Counted from the stretch's first letter, positions 710-7,982 are shown. The stretch: 59,493 nucleotides of DNA from Candidatus Omnitrophota bacterium (GCA_043815185.1 JBDRJF010000023.1:1-59493); one strand, 5' to 3'. Numbers and translations are program-made. The notes: generated by a model not told the origin, from the sequence alone.

Positions 710-1261
710 TTATTTTTTGATTTTAACTTCTAAAATACCATTTTTATAGCATGAGGTTAGATTTTCCGCTTTCACTTTTGCCGGAAGTAAAACTTCTTTA
801 TGGTATTTCCTCTCGCCGCTTTGAGCTTCAAATACCAGGATGTCTTCTTTTAAATCTATTTTTATATCCTCTTGGCTTACGCCCGGCATTTCAGCATAAA
901 CCCTGATCTCATCTTTCTCATCAAAGACATCCGTGATCGGCTCTCTTTCTTCTTCAACCTTTGGCCCTTGGGGAGTCTTTTTGATATTCCCAAATGACTC
1001 TACAATGGGCTTTCCGCCCACAGCTGTCTTGACCGAAAAACCAAATACTCCCTTCATTCCTTCTTTTAAGCGGCTTAAGTCTATCTCTCCTTCTTTCTTA
1101 ATTTCGCCGCCTGACTCTTTCAAATCTGCCGCAAGGTCAATTAACTTCTCAATACCTTTAAATAAGCCGCTGATGCCAAAATCTCCACTAAAAAGATTGG
1201 CGGATCCGCCTTTGGCGGAAAAATTCACCCCTTCTTCTTCCTTTTTCTTCCCTTTGGCCAT
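710..1261 (-). CDS. Hsp20/alpha-crystallin domain protein, GvpH-like size and architecture
   Basis: C-terminal alpha-crystallin-type domain (DVFDEKDEIRVYAEMPGVSQEDIKIDL...YKNGILEVKIKK) after a Gly/Lys-rich N-terminal region. Lies in the gvpA/gvpN operon. The GvpH assignment is inference from context. Confidence 0.7.
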   Translation of the reverse strand: MAKGKKKEEEGVNFSAKGGSANLFSGDFGISGLFKGIEKLIDLAADLKESGGEIKKEGEIDLSRLKEGMKGVFGFSVKTAVGGKPIVESFGNIKKTPQGPKVEEEREPITDVFDEKDEIRVYAEMPGVSQEDIKIDLKEDILVFEAQSGERKYHKEVLLPAKVKAENLTSCYKNGILEVKIKK

Positions 1262-1286: not shown

Positions 1287-1664
1287 TTATTTCTTTGGAA
1301 CAGCCCCTTTCCCTTTACACGTCAAACAGGGCAGGCCACTTTTTTCTCTTCCCCTGCCTTTACAGGCAGGACAGGTTTCAATATCTTTACTGCTCACGCT
1401 TACTACGCCTTTTCCTTTACAGATAATGCAGGTAAGCTCTCTGTTCAGGAACGAGCGCCCCTCTTCGTTACAATAAGCGCAAATAACCGCTGGTGACGAA
1501 ACCTTTACAGTTCCATCGCCTAAGCAGGCAGGGCATCGTGTACTTTTTTTAGAGGGCATCAGCCCCATTCCTTTACAAAATCCACACTTATAACTCGTTT
1601 TGTAAAGAACCTCGCCTTTTTGGCCTACCTTTTGGCTTTTCCAATCAAATGTCTTCCAATACAT
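1287..1664 (-). CDS. Stand-alone DnaJ-type zinc-finger protein (six CxxCxGxG-like repeats)
   Basis: Repeats CGFCKGMG, CPACLGDG, CAYCNEEG, CIICKGKG, CPACKGRG and CLTCKGKG. No J domain. Confidence 0.7.
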   Translation of the reverse strand: MYWKTFDWKSQKVGQKGEVLYKTSYKCGFCKGMGLMPSKKSTRCPACLGDGTVKVSSPAVICAYCNEEGRSFLNRELTCIICKGKGVVSVSSKDIETCPACKGRGREKSGLPCLTCKGKGAVPKK

Positions 1665-1688: not shown

Positions 1689-1994
1689 CTAATATTGTAT
1701 AGACATCGTTTTCAGGGGTTTTGTCGGGACATTCCTATGCGTCTTAATTTTCTGTTTTTCGTGTGTTTCGGTTTGCAGCTTTTCAATCCGCTTATTAATA
1801 GAGCCTAAAAGCCTTTTGGCAGTGTTTCTTCTTTTGTCCAATACAAAGATTTCTTTTTCAAGTCTATCCTTTTCTCTTCTAAACATATACAATTCCAGGT
1901 AGGCAGACCTTTGCGCTTTAGGGATAGACCTGGCATTGATAGAATGTATGCTCTTTATTTCTCTAACACCTGTTACATGTAATATTCCTTTCAT
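1689..1994 (-). CDS. Hypothetical small basic coiled-coil protein
   Basis: ORF track gives 1689..2006. An ATG at 1994 with GGGTGG 8 nt upstream is the more likely start. No recognisable motif. Co-directional in the operon. Confidence 0.4.
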   Translation of the reverse strand: MKGILHVTGVREIKSIHSINARSIPKAQRSAYLELYMFRREKDRLEKEIFVLDKRRNTAKRLLGSINKRIEKLQTETHEKQKIKTHRNVPTKPLKTMSIQY

Positions 1995-2177
1995 CTGGAC
2001 TACCACCCTTTTTTATTTTAAGGCAAGCAATTTACTTGCCTTATTTATTCCGCCGGGCCTTAATTATAACCTATCGCCCGGCTTAATCTTAACTTCTTTA
2101 CGAATAACGCTGTATCGTAATCTTATTTTTATTATCGATCTTCGATAAAACACGCGAAAGCGACAATTTCCACCTCG

Positions 2178-3149
2178 CTAAACAAGAACAGCTTCCTTCT
2201 CTATCTTCCTGATACCCCTAACAGCCCCGGTGATACCGCTTTCTTTCTTAACAAGTTCTTTAACAATTTCTTTCACTCTATTCTGATTAGTCTTTGAGCC
2301 GACCCTGCTTGTTTCAGAAGCCAATATATCCTGGCACATCTGCGTAAAAGCCCCATTGGCATTTGCGGGAGTAATGCTTAGAACCTTAAGCGTCTTGGCA
2401 ATCATAATACAGCCGCGGACAGTCGGAGCAAATTCACACTTTCCCGACTCTCTTAAGCCCCTTACGATATTAACGATTATCTCAGAATTTTGTTTAGAGA
2501 GTTTAGACTTTGCCTGGGTTATAGCGACCTCTGTCTCATAGTCAAAATAATCCAGATCCATAGTGATCATCCTGTCCCTTAAAGCATCCTGGCTCCTGTG
2601 CACACCGGCATATTCTTCCGGATTAGAAGTAAAAATAGCGTTAAAATCCGGGTCAACCCTTAAATACGGTTCATCTCCGCCTCTTCCCACAGGTAAGTCC
2701 ATCATCTTCTCCTGCAGGATGGAAAGAAGGATGTTATTTGCCTCAGGCCGGGAGCGGGTAAATTCATCGTAAATTAAAGTAAATCCATACTTACAGGCAA
2801 CGGTGAGGCGATTATCCACCCAGCGTTTTACCATATCCTCTTCTGTCTTTAAAACCCTTGAGATAAATCGGTCTACGACCTTTCTAACTCGATAGCCATA
2901 CTCACCGCCTACCAAATCAGAAGTAGTAAACTCCTCATCTCCGTGAATCATAACCACCGGCCTTTTAATCTTACCGGCTATGTGCATAGCCAGCGTAGTC
3001 TTGCCGGAACCGGATACGCCTCTAAAATGGACCGGAAAACCCGCTTTAATATAGGCAAGGGCCCTCTTGGCAATATCCTTGATATACTTTGTCTCCACAA
3101 AGTCCAACAAAGGAGTTGGCTCTAATACTGTAGTGTTCTCGTCAATCAT
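2178..3149 (-). CDS. gvpN: GvpN-type AAA+ (MoxR/CbbQ-like) ATPase
   Basis: Walker A GVSGSGKTT and Walker B LIYDEF, with GvpN/CbbQ-like length and layout. About 2.2 kb from gvpA in the same operon. The start overlaps the upstream stop as ATGA (3146-3149). Confidence 0.8.
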   Translation of the reverse strand: MIDENTTVLEPTPLLDFVETKYIKDIAKRALAYIKAGFPVHFRGVSGSGKTTLAMHIAGKIKRPVVMIHGDEEFTTSDLVGGEYGYRVRKVVDRFISRVLKTEEDMVKRWVDNRLTVACKYGFTLIYDEFTRSRPEANNILLSILQEKMMDLPVGRGGDEPYLRVDPDFNAIFTSNPEEYAGVHRSQDALRDRMITMDLDYFDYETEVAITQAKSKLSKQNSEIIVNIVRGLRESGKCEFAPTVRGCIMIAKTLKVLSITPANANGAFTQMCQDILASETSRVGSKTNQNRVKEIVKELVKKESGITGAVRGIRKIEKEAVLV

Positions 3150-3490
3150 TTTATATCACCTTTCTTCTTAGCTTCTACAGTTTTATTCATCTTATTCCAG
3201 AGCTTGCTTGCCTCGATCAAATCGGCGCGGATCTCTTTTTCCTTCTTTCTGAAATCTTCCCTTAGCAAAGAGACCTTCTTAACCAGTTCTTCTCTGTCTT
3301 CTTTAAGCTCCTTTGTTAAGCCTTTGGCCATCTCCTGATGAACTTTTCTGCAATGGCCTACGAACTTCCTGGCATTGTCTCTAATCGACTCTGCTTGTTC
3401 CTTCAAATCTTTTATGCTTCTCTTTCTATCTCCATGGGCCGCGGAGATATCTTCACAAAGAGACTTCATACCGCCCGATATGTTGTTCAT
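3146..3490 (-). CDS. Coiled-coil protein, short paralog of the two repeat proteins at 3897-5243
   Basis: Shares the motif F..H.K.HQEMA..L..EL and an N-terminal M..I...MKS..E.I with its neighbours. Translationally coupled to gvpN. Confidence 0.5.
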   Translation of the reverse strand: MNNISGGMKSLCEDISAAHGDRKRSIKDLKEQAESIRDNARKFVGHCRKVHQEMAKGLTKELKEDREELVKKVSLLREDFRKKEKEIRADLIEASKLWNKMNKTVEAKKKGDIK

Positions 3491-3570
3491 ACTCTAATCT
3501 CCTCAAATTTACGAAGCAAATTTAATTCCGGACCATCATAGTTTTTTCTATCAGACGAGAGATTTGCTTC

Positions 3571-3888
3571 TTATTTCCGTACCACCCCTGTACCTCGACA
3601 GACACTGCAGGGGAGGTTTCCATCTACCTTATAACCGCTGCCTTCACAATTAGGGCATTCCTCTTTACAGCCTCGAGATGCAACACTGCCTTTTCCGTTA
3701 CAGGCAGAGCAGGTAACCCGACTATGGGGATGAACGCCAGTGGCCTTACAAAAGGCACATTTAATCCTCGGCTCATCAACCCTAACCTTTCCTGTGCCGC
3801 CGCATACCTGACATGCAGCCAATTTTGACAGCAGATTGAAAGGGTCTTTACCTTTACCCTTACAAAAGGCGCATTTTATTTCACTCAT
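3571..3888 (-). CDS. Stand-alone DnaJ-type zinc-finger protein (six CxxCxGxG repeats)
   Basis: Repeats CAFCKGKG, CQVCGGTG, CAFCKATG, CSACNGKG, CPNCEGSG and CSVCRGTG. Paralog of 1287..1664. Confidence 0.7.
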   Translation of the reverse strand: MSEIKCAFCKGKGKDPFNLLSKLAACQVCGGTGKVRVDEPRIKCAFCKATGVHPHSRVTCSACNGKGSVASRGCKEECPNCEGSGYKVDGNLPCSVCRGTGVVRK

Positions 3889-3896
3889 CGTCTCAC

Positions 3897-4631
3897 TTAT
3901 CCTTTCTTCTTTCTTCCTCTCTTCTTTCCTTTCTTCTTCCCCTTCTTAACAGCTTCCTTAACTGTGGTTACTTTTTCTCCGGCTTCGATTCTGGGCATTA
4001 CTCCGCCTCTTCGGGATTTGGCTAAAGAGGAAGCCATACTCTGCCATGCACCTTTTGCGTCGGCCATATCAGAGCTATACTCGCCCAAGAGCTTCTTGAT
4101 ACTGCTGACTATGCCGTCAACATATCTAGCTAAGCTCTTTTTTAAAGCACCACTCATCTCGGCATGAGATTCGTCAAACTCTTTTAACATCTTCTTAACC
4201 TGTTTTTCAAGTTCCTCAGCATCTTTAACAAGCTTGTCTTTTAGTTCTTTTGACGTCTTGGTCCGATCCGTGCTCATCTGTTTAAGCACACCCTGAGCTT
4301 CCTTGAGTAGACCTTTCACATACTTTGCCACATTTTTAACGAAGCCGGCCAAATCCTTAGCCTGTTGTTCACTCATCTCCTGGTGGTTCTTCTGGAATAT
4401 TTTGAGCATATCTCCTACAGTCTTAGACAAATCCTTAGCAAAATCAGCTAAATTCTTAGCCTGTTCGCTGGCCATCTTCTTCCTATCCGCGGCAAACCCT
4501 TTTACATCCTTCCGTGCATCAGCCAGTGCCTTGCGGGTATCAACCACTAAATCACCCAAAGCCTTGACCCGAAGATCATAGGAAGCAATGATGTTTTCGG
4601 TAATACTTTTCATACTATCAGCTATTCCCAT
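3897..4631 (-). CDS. Coiled-coil repeat protein with a 33-residue period and a Lys/Gly/Arg-rich tail (candidate GvpC-like shell-binding protein)
   Basis: MASEQAKNLADFAKD... and MSEQQAKDLAGFVKN... start exactly 33 aa apart. At DNA level the 11-mer cttagcctgtt recurs at 4356 and 4455, 99 nt apart. The C-terminus reads KKGKKKGKKRGRKKKG. Confidence 0.6.
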   Translation of the reverse strand: MGIADSMKSITENIIASYDLRVKALGDLVVDTRKALADARKDVKGFAADRKKMASEQAKNLADFAKDLSKTVGDMLKIFQKNHQEMSEQQAKDLAGFVKNVAKYVKGLLKEAQGVLKQMSTDRTKTSKELKDKLVKDAEELEKQVKKMLKEFDESHAEMSGALKKSLARYVDGIVSSIKKLLGEYSSDMADAKGAWQSMASSLAKSRRGGVMPRIEAGEKVTTVKEAVKKGKKKGKKRGRKKKG

Positions 4632-4661
4632 TTCTTATCCCTCCTTTCAAATTACCGGCTC

Positions 4662-5243
4662 TTATTTAGCCGCGGCCATTGTTAATTTTCGTCCTGAAAA
4701 AACCAAATCTTGCTTTGCGCGGATATTGTTTACCGCCTCTTTAAAATCCTTGACCTCTATGGCTTCTCCTTTATCTAAAAGGCTACGCAGCGATTCAGCC
4801 ATTTCTTTATGCTCGCTTTGAAATTCCTTAAGGGTAGTACTCACTTCATTTTCTCTGGCCTTCTGCCTAGACTGAATATTCTCTAAAGTCTTTTTAAAAT
4901 CCTCTATCTTTACCTTTTTGCCATCTCCCAGGTTTCTCTTAAGAAGTTCAGCTATCTCTTTTTGTTCCTCAAAGAAGGTCTTTAATAAATTCTTTACTTC
5001 TTCTTCGCTTTCATCTTGATAAATGAAAATATCCCCGATCATATTGTCAAAATCTTTTCTCCTTAGGGATTCTTCTTTAGCCAGGGTCTCTTTAAGTTGT
5101 TCACTCATCTGTTTTCTTTCGGCTCTAAAATCTTCCAAAATCTGGTGAGTATCATCTACGATCTTCGCTACGGTCGAAACTCTGGCTTGGTAAGAAGAAA
5201 CAATCTCTAAAGCAACTCTTTTCATGTCTTCGGTAATTCCCAT
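4662..5243 (-). CDS. Coiled-coil repeat protein (three ~45-aa repeats), paralog of 3897..4631
   Basis: N-terminus MGITEDMKRVALEIVSSYQARV parallels MGIADSMKSITENIIASYDLRV. It has the repeats F..E.K(E/Q)(M/I)(A/S)E.L...L.......DF......I. Confidence 0.6.
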   Translation of the reverse strand: MGITEDMKRVALEIVSSYQARVSTVAKIVDDTHQILEDFRAERKQMSEQLKETLAKEESLRRKDFDNMIGDIFIYQDESEEEVKNLLKTFFEEQKEIAELLKRNLGDGKKVKIEDFKKTLENIQSRQKARENEVSTTLKEFQSEHKEMAESLRSLLDKGEAIEVKDFKEAVNNIRAKQDLVFSGRKLTMAAAK

Positions 5244-5293
5244 AATTACATTCCTTTCTAAAGGTTAAAGAAGGACCTCCTTGGCGCGATATG

Positions 5294-5319
5294 CCCTTGA
5301 CATCAAAGATGTCAAGGGG
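5294..5319 (-). terminator. Perfect 11-bp stem / 3-nt loop hairpin about 40 nt downstream of the gvpA stop (attenuator or mRNA-stabilising stem-loop)
   Basis: cccttgacatc-aaa-gatgtcaaggg. No U-tract follows, so it is not a classical intrinsic terminator. Confidence 0.4.
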
Positions 5320-5358
5320 ATGTCTCGGCAAGAATCCCTCTTAGATATTGACCAATCC

Positions 5359-5574
5359 TTATGCTGCTGTAGCTGTTAAACCAATGGCTTCAGCATACTT
5401 AAGATAAGTCTCGACTGATGCCACTACTACTCTGGCTTCAATCGCGAGTATTTCAATACCCACTAAAGAAACTCTTACCCAAGCATCAACAATTACGCCC
5501 TTATCCAGGATTCTGTCAATAACCTCAACCAAACTGGAAGAACCAATTGCTTTTTCTACTGCCATGTTCAACAC
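5359..5574 (-). CDS. gvpA: Gas vesicle structural protein GvpA
   Basis: 71 aa. [54 protein letters not shown] is the hallmark GvpA core. A strong SD AAGGAGGTG lies upstream. Confidence 0.95.
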
Positions 5575-5633: not shown

Positions 5634-6350
5634 TTACTTCTTAAACACCTTGCCTAAAAAACCTTCAGCTTTACTTTTCGCTCCTAAACCAAAGCTAAGA
5701 GCTAAAGCTAAAATTAACCCGCCAAGAATAATATCTTTAGAATTATTAGTCAAAATAACTCCTAACCCCAAGCTGTTTAAGGCAATCAACCCGGCAACAA
5801 CAATAATGGCATACTTAGCAATGTTGGCGAGTATCTGAGCCTGAGCAATTCTGACATTTCCTCCTACCAAGGCGATTATCCCTGAAATAAGTATGGCCAA
5901 AAAAATCCCTAAAATTAGTATAAACACTGCGGCAATTACATTAGGGATATAAGAAAGAATTTGTGCTGTTATTCCGCTAGTAGTTAGTCCGTAAAACTCT
6001 AAAGCCACGATTAAAGTGCCAATGATAATTAAAAAAAATATTATCTCCGTAAGTAATTCACTTAAAGAAAGTCCAATGTTGCCTTTTTTGAGAATCTGAG
6101 GGATTTTGGCTTTCTTAGCCCCTTTTTCTAACTTAATAATCACCAGTAACTTTGCCACCAAGGCAACAATTCCTACTGCAATCAAAGCCCCAATCACCAA
6201 GATAAGCAACAATCCCCCTAATTTCGGCAAGTACTCTCCCAATTTAGCCAAACCAGTCTTAGCCGGTTCTAACACTCCAGCAAAAGCAGGCATAACCAAC
6301 AGGCTCATAACCACGGCCAAAAATACCCCTACTCTACTTACTTTCTGCAT
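5634..6350 (-). CDS. Multi-pass membrane protein with signal-like N-terminus and repeated Gly/Ala/Ile/Leu-rich TM helices
   Basis: MQKVSRVGVFLAVVMSLLVMPAFA is followed by several hydrophobic spans. It is the first gene after the sigma-54 promoter, immediately upstream of gvpA. Confidence 0.55.
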   Translation of the reverse strand: MQKVSRVGVFLAVVMSLLVMPAFAGVLEPAKTGLAKLGEYLPKLGGLLLILVIGALIAVGIVALVAKLLVIIKLEKGAKKAKIPQILKKGNIGLSLSELLTEIIFFLIIIGTLIVALEFYGLTTSGITAQILSYIPNVIAAVFILILGIFLAILISGIIALVGGNVRIAQAQILANIAKYAIIVVAGLIALNSLGLGVILTNNSKDIILGGLILALALSFGLGAKSKAEGFLGKVFKK

Positions 6351-6608: not shown

Positions 6609-7982
6609 TTATTCCAATTGAAACTCTCTTATCTTCGAATAGAGGCTGGTACGGTCTATCTTAAGGATTTTAGCAGCCTTGGTTTTATTGCCGCTTACTT
6701 TAGTTAAAGTTTGTTTAATTGCTTCTCTTTCGATTTGTTCGGTGACTTTTTTGGTCATTTCCCATAGAGAGGTTCCCTTATCTAAATCAGGCTGAAATTG
6801 TAGGCTTTTGGGTAAAGTAGAATTATTTAAACCTAGGTCACCGGAACTAATCATACTTGAATCAGCCAAAAGTACGGCTTTTCTGATTGCATTCTTTAAC
6901 TCTCGGACATTGCCCGGCCAATTATAAGCCAGTAAATGTTTCATGGCTTCAGGAGATATCTCTTCTATTTTTTTGTTAAGTTTCTGATTTTCTTCTTCTA
7001 AAAAACATTTGGCTAAAACAGGAATGTCTTCTTTTCTTTCCACCAAGGAAGGTAAATCTATACAAAACTCATTTAATCTATGAAACAAATCATTTCTAAA
7101 CTTTCCCGCTCTTACCTCCTCCCAAAGGTTAGTCCCGGTAGCGGCAATAATTCGAACATTTACGCTTATGTCCTTCTTACCTCCTAAATGCTGTAATTTC
7201 CGCTCTTCAATTACCCGTAATAACTTTGCCTGTACGGCCAAAGATAAATTGGCAATCTCATCTAAAAATAAAGTGCCGCCTTGAGCCTGTTCAAATTTGC
7301 CTTCCTTTCTCTCCTCAGCTCCGGTAAAAGCGCCTTTCTCATAGCCGAATAATTCACTTTCCACTAAACTTTCCGGGATTGCTCCGCAATCTATAGGCAC
7401 AAATGGTTTATTAGCTCTTTTGCTCTTTTGATAAATCAAGTTAGCAATAACCTCTTTGCCGGTTCCGCTTTCACCCTCTAGAATAACCGTCATGTTTGTG
7501 CAAGCAACAATTTCTACTTGCTTTAAAACCTTCTTTATCTGAGGACTTTCTCCCATCACTATTTCTATAGTTTCTTTTTCGCCTAATTTTTTTCTTAACC
7601 TTTCTACTTCTCTACTTAAATATTGAGTCTTAAGGGCTTTTTTAATAGTAAAAACCAGCTCTTCATTGTTGAAAGGTTTGGTAACATAATCAAATGCCCC
7701 TAACTTTATCGCTTTCACTGCTTCTTTAACCTCGCTATAGGCAGTAAGCATTATAATAATTAAATCTTTATCTCTTCTTTTCATTTCCTCTAAAATCTTC
7801 ATCCCATCCATACTGGGAAGCTTAAGGTCTAACAAAACTAAATTGGGGCAATTTCTTTCAACTGCCTTAAGAGCACTCCTCCCATCTCCGGCACTAACCA
7901 GATCATAACCTTCCTCTCCTAAAACAGCTGAAAGATTAAAACAGAAGTCTTTATCATCATCTACAATAAGGATAGTTTCCAT
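6609..7982 (-). CDS. Sigma-54-dependent response regulator (NtrC family: REC-AAA+-HTH)
   Basis: REC domain (LLDLKLPSMDG), Walker A GESGTGKE, GAFTGA loop (EKGAFTGA) and C-terminal Fis-type HTH (KTKAAKILKIDRTSLYSKI). Confidence 0.9.
   Translation of the reverse strand: METILIVDDDKDFCFNLSAVLGEEGYDLVSAGDGRSALKAVERNCPNLVLLDLKLPSMDGMKILEEMKRRDKDLIIIMLTAYSEVKEAVKAIKLGAFDYVTKPFNNEELVFTIKKALKTQYLSREVERLRKKLGEKETIEIVMGESPQIKKVLKQVEIVACTNMTVILEGESGTGKEVIANLIYQKSKRANKPFVPIDCGAIPESLVESELFGYEKGAFTGAEERKEGKFEQAQGGTLFLDEIANLSLAVQAKLLRVIEERKLQHLGGKKDISVNVRIIAATGTNLWEEVRAGKFRNDLFHRLNEFCIDLPSLVERKEDIPVLAKCFLEEENQKLNKKIEEISPEAMKHLLAYNWPGNVRELKNAIRKAVLLADSSMISSGDLGLNNSTLPKSLQFQPDLDKGTSLWEMTKKVTEQIEREAIKQTLTKVSGNKTKAAKILKIDRTSLYSKIREFQLE

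Follow-up and report, generated by a model that had tools for sequence, protein, structure and literature searches.

The analysed stretch of DNA, hereafter the window, is a sequence of 59,493 nucleotides from a Candidatus Omnitrophota bacterium (GCA_043815185.1, JBDRJF010000023.1:1-59493). The start of a gas-vesicle operon, read from the minus strand, occupies its first 5.6 kb. The gene for the major shell protein, gvpA, lies at 5359-5574 (PF00741; NF006874, 130 bits), its true start being likely the ATG at 5565 (MAVEKAIG...), and the gene for the AAA+ ATPase, gvpN, at 2178-3149 (TIGR02640, 335 bits). Between these two, on the same minus strand, three genes encode proteins of 193, 244 and 114 residues, called here p193 (4662-5243), p244 (3897-4631) and p114 (3146-3490). 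No Pfam or NCBIfam model matched any of the three proteins above its cutoff. We report that p244 is probably a divergent GvpC, remotely homologous to the cyanobacterial protein of that name, which strengthens gas vesicles from the outside, and that its two neighbours belong to the same protein group.

A first-pass annotation of this DNA had described the three proteins as paralogous, and this was confirmed. BLASTP aligned p244 with p193 at 1e-13 and with p114 at 3e-5. When alignments of the p244 family (A1), the p193 family (A4) and the p114 family (A5) were compared with hhalign, A4 matched A1 at 99.1% (E 5.7e-19) and A5 matched A1 at 96% (E 4e-9), the latter match spanning the N-terminus and the C-terminal W-motif. 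p193 and p114 are connected mainly via p244. By profile similarity, the N-terminal helix M(G)I..(S/D)MK...E.I..SY..R is indeed common to all three, and a C-terminal motif, A..W..M...LAK.R (the W-motif), is shared by p244, p114 and many p193 homologs. The region first assigned to the paralogs also encloses, however, a zinc-finger gene (3571-3888) that is not one of them.

The sequence of p244 is periodic. Two motifs pointed out at first reading, MASEQAKNLADFAKD from residue 53 and MSEQQAKDLAGFVKN from residue 86, are exactly 33 residues apart, and BLOSUM autocorrelation of the protein reached 0.65 at lag 33, compared to a maximum of 0.15 over all lags in shuffled sequences (0 of 1000 shuffles reached the observed value). 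The notion of an exact 33-codon repeat holds for the spacing but not for the copies, as units 1 and 2 have only 13 of 33 residues, and 55 of 99 nucleotides, in common. The 11-mer cttagcctgtt does recur at 4356 and 4455; recurrence of an 11-mer somewhere in the p244 gene arises in 13% of codon shuffles. Tandem Repeats Finder and other DNA-level repeat searches found no 99-nt array in the p244 DNA, and returned only the Lys-codon tail. At the DNA level the repeats are old, with 99-nt units too diverged to register as such.

A repeat hidden Markov model (HMM) delimited four units on the minus strand: repeat 1 (residues 45-77, 4401-4499, 57.4 bits), repeat 2 (residues 78-110, 4302-4400, 55.4 bits), repeat 3, placed after a 7-residue insertion (residues 118-150, 4182-4280, 24.4 bits), and repeat 4 (residues 151-183, 4083-4181, 42.1 bits). 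Their starts, at residues 45, 78, 118 and 151, are spaced by 33, 40 (33 + 7) and 33 residues. The same spacings predominate in the p244 family, where 386 of the 494 intervals between detected repeats measure 33 residues and 45 measure 40, with 1 to 6 copies detected per protein. The mean autocorrelation of the family also has lag 33, and whole 33-residue units are inserted or deleted in the homolog alignment. The units are cleaner in homologs than in the window protein (for instance GFQKSHKEMSEDQAKSLSDFVKSLTKGVGSMLS). A loss of register in orthologs, which the first-pass annotation had singled out as damaging to its proposal, was therefore not observed.

From one end to the other, p244 is made of the N-terminal helix, the four 33-residue repeats, the W-motif, a conserved MPRIEAGEKVTTV segment, and the polybasic C-terminal tail KKGKKKGKKRGRKKKG that had already been recognised (3900-3947, minus strand). 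AlphaFold2 (AF2) predicted a helix over residues 2-208, with breaks only at two H.EMS motifs and no compact fold (predicted local distance difference test, pLDDT, 65; predicted template modelling score, pTM, 0.28). Between the W-motif and the basic tail lies a non-helical, highly conserved segment, GVMPRIEAGEKVTTVKEA (approximately 3948-4006, p244 residues ~209-228), which is not present in cyanobacterial GvpC. In many long homologs (for example P0006, P0008, P0035, P0052, and the protein encoded at 3428-4669 of locus L031), an acidic linker and a domain of about 55 residues replace the polybasic tail. This domain gave sub-threshold winged-helix matches (MarR_2 at 2e-5, HTH_24 and EutK_C).

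The family to which p244 belongs is large and widely distributed. A word-indexed search found 223 relatives, and a p244-family profile search of 1.84 billion representatives yielded 1,486 clusters with a limit of E <= 1e-3, of which 644 also passed E <= 1e-10. A genome scan, with an alignment of 10 close p244-family sequences as query, produced 28 loci, the closest being from Omnitrophota (64% identity). According to the record titles, these loci come from Omnitrophota, 'Planctomycetia', Nitrospirota, Syntrophorhabdus, Thermodesulfobacteriota, Latescibacter, KSB1 and Bacteroidetes; further members were found in Desantisbacteria metagenome-assembled genomes. A search of plasmids with p244 by tblastn gave no match. 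At the near end of the range, the window GvpA and p114 are 97% and 88% identical, respectively, to proteins of UBA10183 (Omnitrophota).

The conserved order reads gvpA, p193, p244 (one or two copies), zinc finger, p114, gvpN, a 100-aa protein, in some cases a second zinc finger, and Hsp20. Beyond Hsp20, the cluster continues with ArsA, then a CDC48-like AAA+ protein and the genes gvpF/L, G, K and J. The order from gvpA to gvpN is kept in the 28 loci, which represent at least 8 phylum-level groups, as the records label them. Some genomes carry two tandem p244-type genes, one divergent and one typical (L012, L013, L015, L017 and L020). No source names any family member GvpC: the NCBI names are hypothetical, and those of the Joint Genome Institute are scattered. 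Some members may already have been called GvpC informally, given a report on proteobacterial clusters (Tashiro et al. 2016).

For the comparison with cyanobacterial GvpC, six PF01304-positive proteins and one Nostoc GvpC annotated by the Prokaryotic Genome Annotation Pipeline were used. With hhalign, A1 matched the six GvpCs at 81% (E 1.2e-5, score 38.7), while the reversed GvpC alignment scored 12.2 and 100 column shuffles scored 11.1 +/- 2.0, with a maximum of 16.7. Against the Nostoc GvpC alone, the match was at 91.9% (E 7e-7), and was collinear from GvpC residue 1 across the N-terminal segment and the repeats; with HMMER, the same pair gave 58.8 bits, of which 43.3 bits for the best single domain. 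The reciprocal search was carried out with the six-GvpC profile against 1,814 open reading frames (ORFs) of at least 60 aa, taken in six frames from the window and from 32 loci. All of the top 28 ranks were p244-family members (E 1.5e-10 to 0.015), with the window p244 at E 1.3e-5, and the first unrelated ORF came at E 1.9. Members of the p114 and p193 families ranked next, with marginal E-values.

We then compared the registers of the two kinds of repeat, using 684 p244-family repeat instances and 18 cyanobacterial repeats, at all 33 circular shifts. A single shift, 13, was outstanding, with a score of +19.8 against -0.5 for the next best, and 0 of 2000 column-permuted controls reached it. 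In Anabaena GvpC, whose consensus repeat is YKELQETSQQFLSATAQARIAQAEKQAQELLAF, mutations have identified L4/L12/L30, F11/F33 and R19 as the face binding helix alpha2 of GvpA, one repeat being present per four GvpA monomers (Huber et al. 2023, PMC9994262). At shift 13, GvpC positions L4, F11, L12, R19, Q26, L30 and F33 fall on L/I24, M/L31, L32, R/H6, Q/L13, L17 and F/Y20 of the p244-family repeat. L17 is 99% conserved, and the counterpart of F11 is M or L rather than F. Conservation peaks at about 97-98 degrees per residue in both families, meaning that the 33 residues are built as 3 x 11 hendecads, with a straight stripe along the helix. The conserved faces have the same phase, 307 degrees in the p244 family versus 310 degrees in GvpC (at 98 degrees per residue). 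As for the partner of this face, the GvpA proteins of the window and of Nostoc are 81% identical, with no difference in the 11-residue alpha2 segment; the docking surface on helix alpha2 is conserved.

Since amphipathic proteins built on 11-mers give inflated scores, the homology of p244 with GvpC is based on several tests taken together, namely the register, the collinearity of the N-terminus, the specificity of the reciprocal search and the position in the operon. On this ground we consider it likely that p244 is a divergent GvpC. The first-pass annotation had found no obvious GvpC sequence in these proteins and suggested that they may have evolved independently; for p244, the reciprocal profile searches, the unique register, the binding-face residues and the N-terminal segment point the other way. 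Its suggestion of an outer scaffold matching the GvpA lattice is, on the other hand, the best reading of p244.

Comparison with characterised systems shows both likenesses and departures. Like the GvpC of Anabaena/Dolichospermum flos-aquae (P09413; PF01304), p244 has tandem 33-residue helical repeats in variable number, whose conserved residues stand in the same register; its N-terminal segment is related, and the GvpA alpha2 target is conserved. Unlike it, the p244 family stands at about 20-25% identity and is missed by PF01304 and NCBIfam, has M/L in place of F11, F in place of T15 and M in place of Q22, and is accompanied by the paralogs p193 and p114, which are missing from cyanobacteria. 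The C-termini also differ: where cyanobacterial GvpC has ...FRQDLFVSIFG, the p244 family carries the W-motif and the MPRIEAGExVTTV segment, together with either a polybasic tail or a domain resembling a winged helix-turn-helix (wHTH). As with the Nostoc and Halobacterium reference gvpC, the p244 gene is situated between gvpA and gvpN, an interval shared here with p193, the zinc finger and p114.

The GvpC of haloarchaea (Halobacterium salinarum NRC-1, pNRC100) is an outer-shell protein with helical repeats of 32-39 residues, a linker and a globular C-terminal domain (PMC10903477, PMC9501494), and has been reported to bind GvpN (PMC9501494). Long p244 homologs share this architecture of helical rod, linker and small C-terminal domain. 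Contrary to p244, haloarchaeal GvpC is acidic and its repeat lengths are irregular. In Serratia sp. ATCC 39006, a gvpC mutation lowers the collapse pressure from 0.43 to 0.14 MPa, and the authors state that the gvp clusters of beta-, gamma- and delta-proteobacteria have GvpC in common (Tashiro et al. 2016, PMC4982088). By its published description, the Serratia operon, gvpA1-gvpC-gvpN with NtrC-type GvrA regulators, is of the same type as the one here. Spartinivicinus and Octadecabacter plasmids also encode proteins between gvpA and gvpN, with hypothetical as their annotation; that of Spartinivicinus, the only one compared and used as a negative control, is unrelated to p244 and to GvpC. From these sequence comparisons, p244 would represent a deep-branching GvpC subfamily that has kept the binding face, within a conserved three-paralog module apparently undescribed in model systems.

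Several observations weigh against an identification of p244 as GvpC. The curated GvpC models of PF01304 and NCBIfam gave no match to the window p244 at E <= 1, PF01304 was not among the 25 families matched by most of 37 p244-family members at E <= 10, and it was likewise absent from the precomputed domains of the listed p244 relatives. The GvpCs of cyanobacteria used for comparison are few (six sequences and Nostoc), and no similarity was detected between the p244 family and H. salinarum GvpC (hhalign 0.6%; HMMER 4 bits). p193 and p114 have no direct similarity to GvpC. The confidence of the AF2 model of p244 is modest (pLDDT 65). The A1 profile also matches apolipoprotein A-IV (ApoA-IV) with a similar summed score (55 bits), showing that amphipathic 11-mer proteins can score sizeably without homology.

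Some of these observations would fit a p244 that arose separately and converged on a 33-residue amphipathic repeat, as any helix binding four GvpA monomers needs that period and a similar Leu/Phe/Arg face. The alpha2 target is almost invariant, which makes convergent contact residues conceivable, the curated models miss the family, and the ApoA-IV score illustrates how strongly unrelated amphipathic repeats can match. We nevertheless find such a separate origin unlikely: the similarity with GvpC extends into the N-terminal segment, outside the repeats, and runs collinearly from its residue 1, the reciprocal search has a high specificity, p244 occupies the slot of GvpC between gvpA and gvpN, and the ApoA-IV match is made up of three fragments, the best of which reaches 25.9 bits, against 43.3 bits for GvpC. 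That match to ApoA-IV has an E-value of 2e-13 when A1 is searched against the PDB sequence set, and was examined for itself. Exchangeable apolipoproteins (A-I, A-IV and E; PF01442) resemble p244 in having amphipathic, surface-lying helices on 11-residue units; they are secreted proteins of vertebrates, with 22-mer repeats punctuated by Pro. Homology with them was rejected: hhalign gave 38%, versus 92% for GvpC, Pfam Apolipoprotein PF01442 scored 32.9 bits for a cutoff of 90, neither the single p244 sequence nor its reverse was significant against ApoA-IV, and the period is 33. The likeness is an analogy and does not imply family membership. A confident match to an unrelated family, which the first-pass annotation had named as a refutation, was not found.

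The same data bear on the view that the proteins are generic coats of the phasin or exchangeable-apolipoprotein type, lying with 11-mer amphipathic helices on hydrophobic interfaces or on other inclusions, without any register with the GvpA lattice. The ApoA-IV match speaks for it, as do sub-threshold matches to Pfam Apolipoprotein (36 of 37 members), ApoLp-III and the phasin family PhaP_Bmeg PF09602 (21 of 37 members, best E 1.8e-4), and the prediction of p193 as four long, compactly packed helices (pTM 0.60). All of these matches stay below the gathering scores, however, and the significance against ApoA-IV is lost with the single p244 sequence. Moreover, the polar R and Q are conserved once per 33 residues and not once per 11 or 22, and linkage to gvpA and gvpN is strict in every locus. 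We regard a generic coat as very unlikely; for the phasin-like alternative raised at first, the matches in favour are only sub-threshold and compositional. Just as unlikely is a role in binding DNA, RNA or the nucleoid, or in regulating the gvp operon, through the polybasic tail or the winged-helix domain, p244 then being no shell component at all. The tail KKGKKKGKKRGRKKKG and the C-terminal domains of the long homologs, with their MarR_2 (2e-5), HTH_24 and EutK_C matches, are what suggests it. Yet these matches are below cutoff, the tail or domain is the variable part of the family while the repeat rod is the conserved part, and haloarchaeal GvpC, which also carries a globular C-terminal domain, is still a shell protein (PMC10903477).

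The 33-residue logic that had been extended to p193 and p114 did not apply to them. The autocorrelation of p193 peaks at lag 51 in the window protein and at lag 58 in the family, and no significant repeat was found in p114 (p = 0.14). After the shared N-terminal helix, p193 consists of three units of about 51 residues. Each resembles the 33-mer over its first 14-20 positions (F...R..M(S/A)E...) but not thereafter. AF2 predicted four helices, approximately 29-54 residues long, with short loops between them (pLDDT 75, pTM 0.60), a layout at odds with a continuous rib-matching rod. A Foldseek search of this model against the PDB returned generic helical bundles only (E > 0.2, TM-score < 0.4). We also considered that the spacings of 40, 51 and 58 residues could correspond to 5, 6 and 7 GvpA monomers (8.25 residues each), and rejected this as numerology, the p193 model being loop-broken into four helices with no continuous rod. 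The p193 family counts at least 613 clusters, without an informative name. In locus L031 (KSB1), a 413-aa protein whose best match is p193 has super-repeats of about 91 residues and a C-terminal domain, and two gvpN-like ORFs are present.

p114 has the same N-terminal helix as p244 and, at its C-terminus, the W-motif; it resembles p244 minus its repeats. As noted at first, its gene overlaps gvpN, the stop of p114 and the start of gvpN sharing ATGA; this 4-bp overlap recurs in L006, L009 and L016. Halobacterium gvpC overlaps gvpN by 4 bp as well (L035, 2812-2815). Judging from profile similarity and layout, p193 and p114 appear to be GvpC-derived paralogs with remodelled cores.

A conserved RNA hairpin was detected in the intergenic region between gvpA and p193 (5266-5341, minus strand), on the basis of covariation and minimum free energy (-40 kcal/mol for the 115-nt region that holds it). 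In 17 sequences from several phyla, its 21 pairs were 94% paired, versus 42-56% when the partners were slid, and compensatory changes were found in 7 of the 21 pairs. The frequency of G-U pairs led us to read it as a sense-strand RNA. It has an outer stem TTCTTGCCGAG/CTCGCCAAGAA, an inner stem ATCCTT/AAGCAT(G) and a variable apical hairpin, and is found at the same intergenic site in L002, L005, L006, L008, L010-L019, L025 and L027. No Rfam family was matched. It may be an attenuator or an mRNA stabiliser, and it plausibly sets a high ratio of GvpA to GvpC-family expression.

Beyond the three paralogs, the zinc-finger gene at 3571-3888 (minus strand) encodes a DnaJ-type CXXCXGXG protein (PF00684, 41 bits; also recognised by synteny), and a second one (PF00684) lies at 1287-1664 (minus strand). 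Both proteins consist of the central zinc finger of DnaJ only, and are conserved in this type of gvp cluster (L001, L002 and others). Downstream of gvpN, a 105-aa protein with no Pfam or NCBIfam match is encoded at 1689-2006 (minus strand); a counterpart of about 100 aa stands at the same position in nearly all related loci, and the protein may correspond to GvpO or GvpV. A Hsp20/GvpH-like protein follows (710-1261, minus strand; PF00011, PF05455), and then an ArsA-like ATPase gene, which extends past the window start and was recognised by the P-loop GKGGVGKTT in its translation; L001 and L002 have ArsA_ATPase in the corresponding position. With DnaJ-type zinc fingers, Hsp20/GvpH and the adjoining ArsA-like ATPase in the window, and, in related loci, the CDC48-like AAA+ protein and a fusion of GvpF/L with a DnaJ J-domain, this type of gas-vesicle cluster is unusually rich in chaperones. 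Directly upstream of gvpA, a membrane protein with MscS-type transmembrane helix repeats (PF05552) is encoded at 5634-6350 (minus strand); this gene is not at the matching position in L001 or L002. A NtrC-type response regulator gene is found further upstream of the gvp genes (6609-7982).

Taking p244 to be a GvpC, it would form an elongated, nearly all alpha-helical rod, whose four 33-residue repeats, of 3 x 11 hendecads each, would present a conserved stripe composed of F2, R/H6, M9, S10, Q13, L17, F20, L24, V28, M31 and L32. By analogy with Anabaena GvpC, we infer that the rod would lie at the vesicle surface along the GvpA ribs, on helix alpha2, with about four GvpA monomers per repeat, and that its binding would raise the pressure at which vesicles collapse. 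p193 and p114 would descend from the same ancestor, having kept the N-terminal helix and, in most members, the W-motif, while their cores were remodelled; p114, without helix units, would be co-translated with GvpN. Rather than rib-matching rods, these two are most likely vesicle-associated accessory or structural partners, for example cap proteins, assembly chaperones or an adaptor for GvpN. One may go further and imagine that the three paralogs make up a multi-component outer scaffold not present in any studied gas-vesicle system. In such a scaffold, p244 rods would run along the ribs of the cylinder, and p193, a compact helical assembly, would open onto or mark a different lattice context, for instance caps, seam or growing edges. 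p114, coupled to GvpN, would serve as its adaptor or as a terminator; vesicles would be tethered to one another or to the nucleoid by the polybasic or winged-helix C-termini, and the RNA hairpin would set the stoichiometry. This is speculative, and we hold it to be improbable.

GvpC is a handle by which the mechanics of gas vesicles are tuned, and acoustic reporter genes and biosensors are engineered. To our knowledge, its binding motif has been based until now on cyanobacterial sequences alone. In the p244 family, about 1,500 clusters at 50% identity by profile search, the L/F/R/Q face and the 33-residue register are kept at ~20-25% identity on a near-identical GvpA alpha2, so that nature would have provided a broad mutational scan of this interface. 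Two further abundant families of gvp clusters, p193 and p114, come to light as unannotated.

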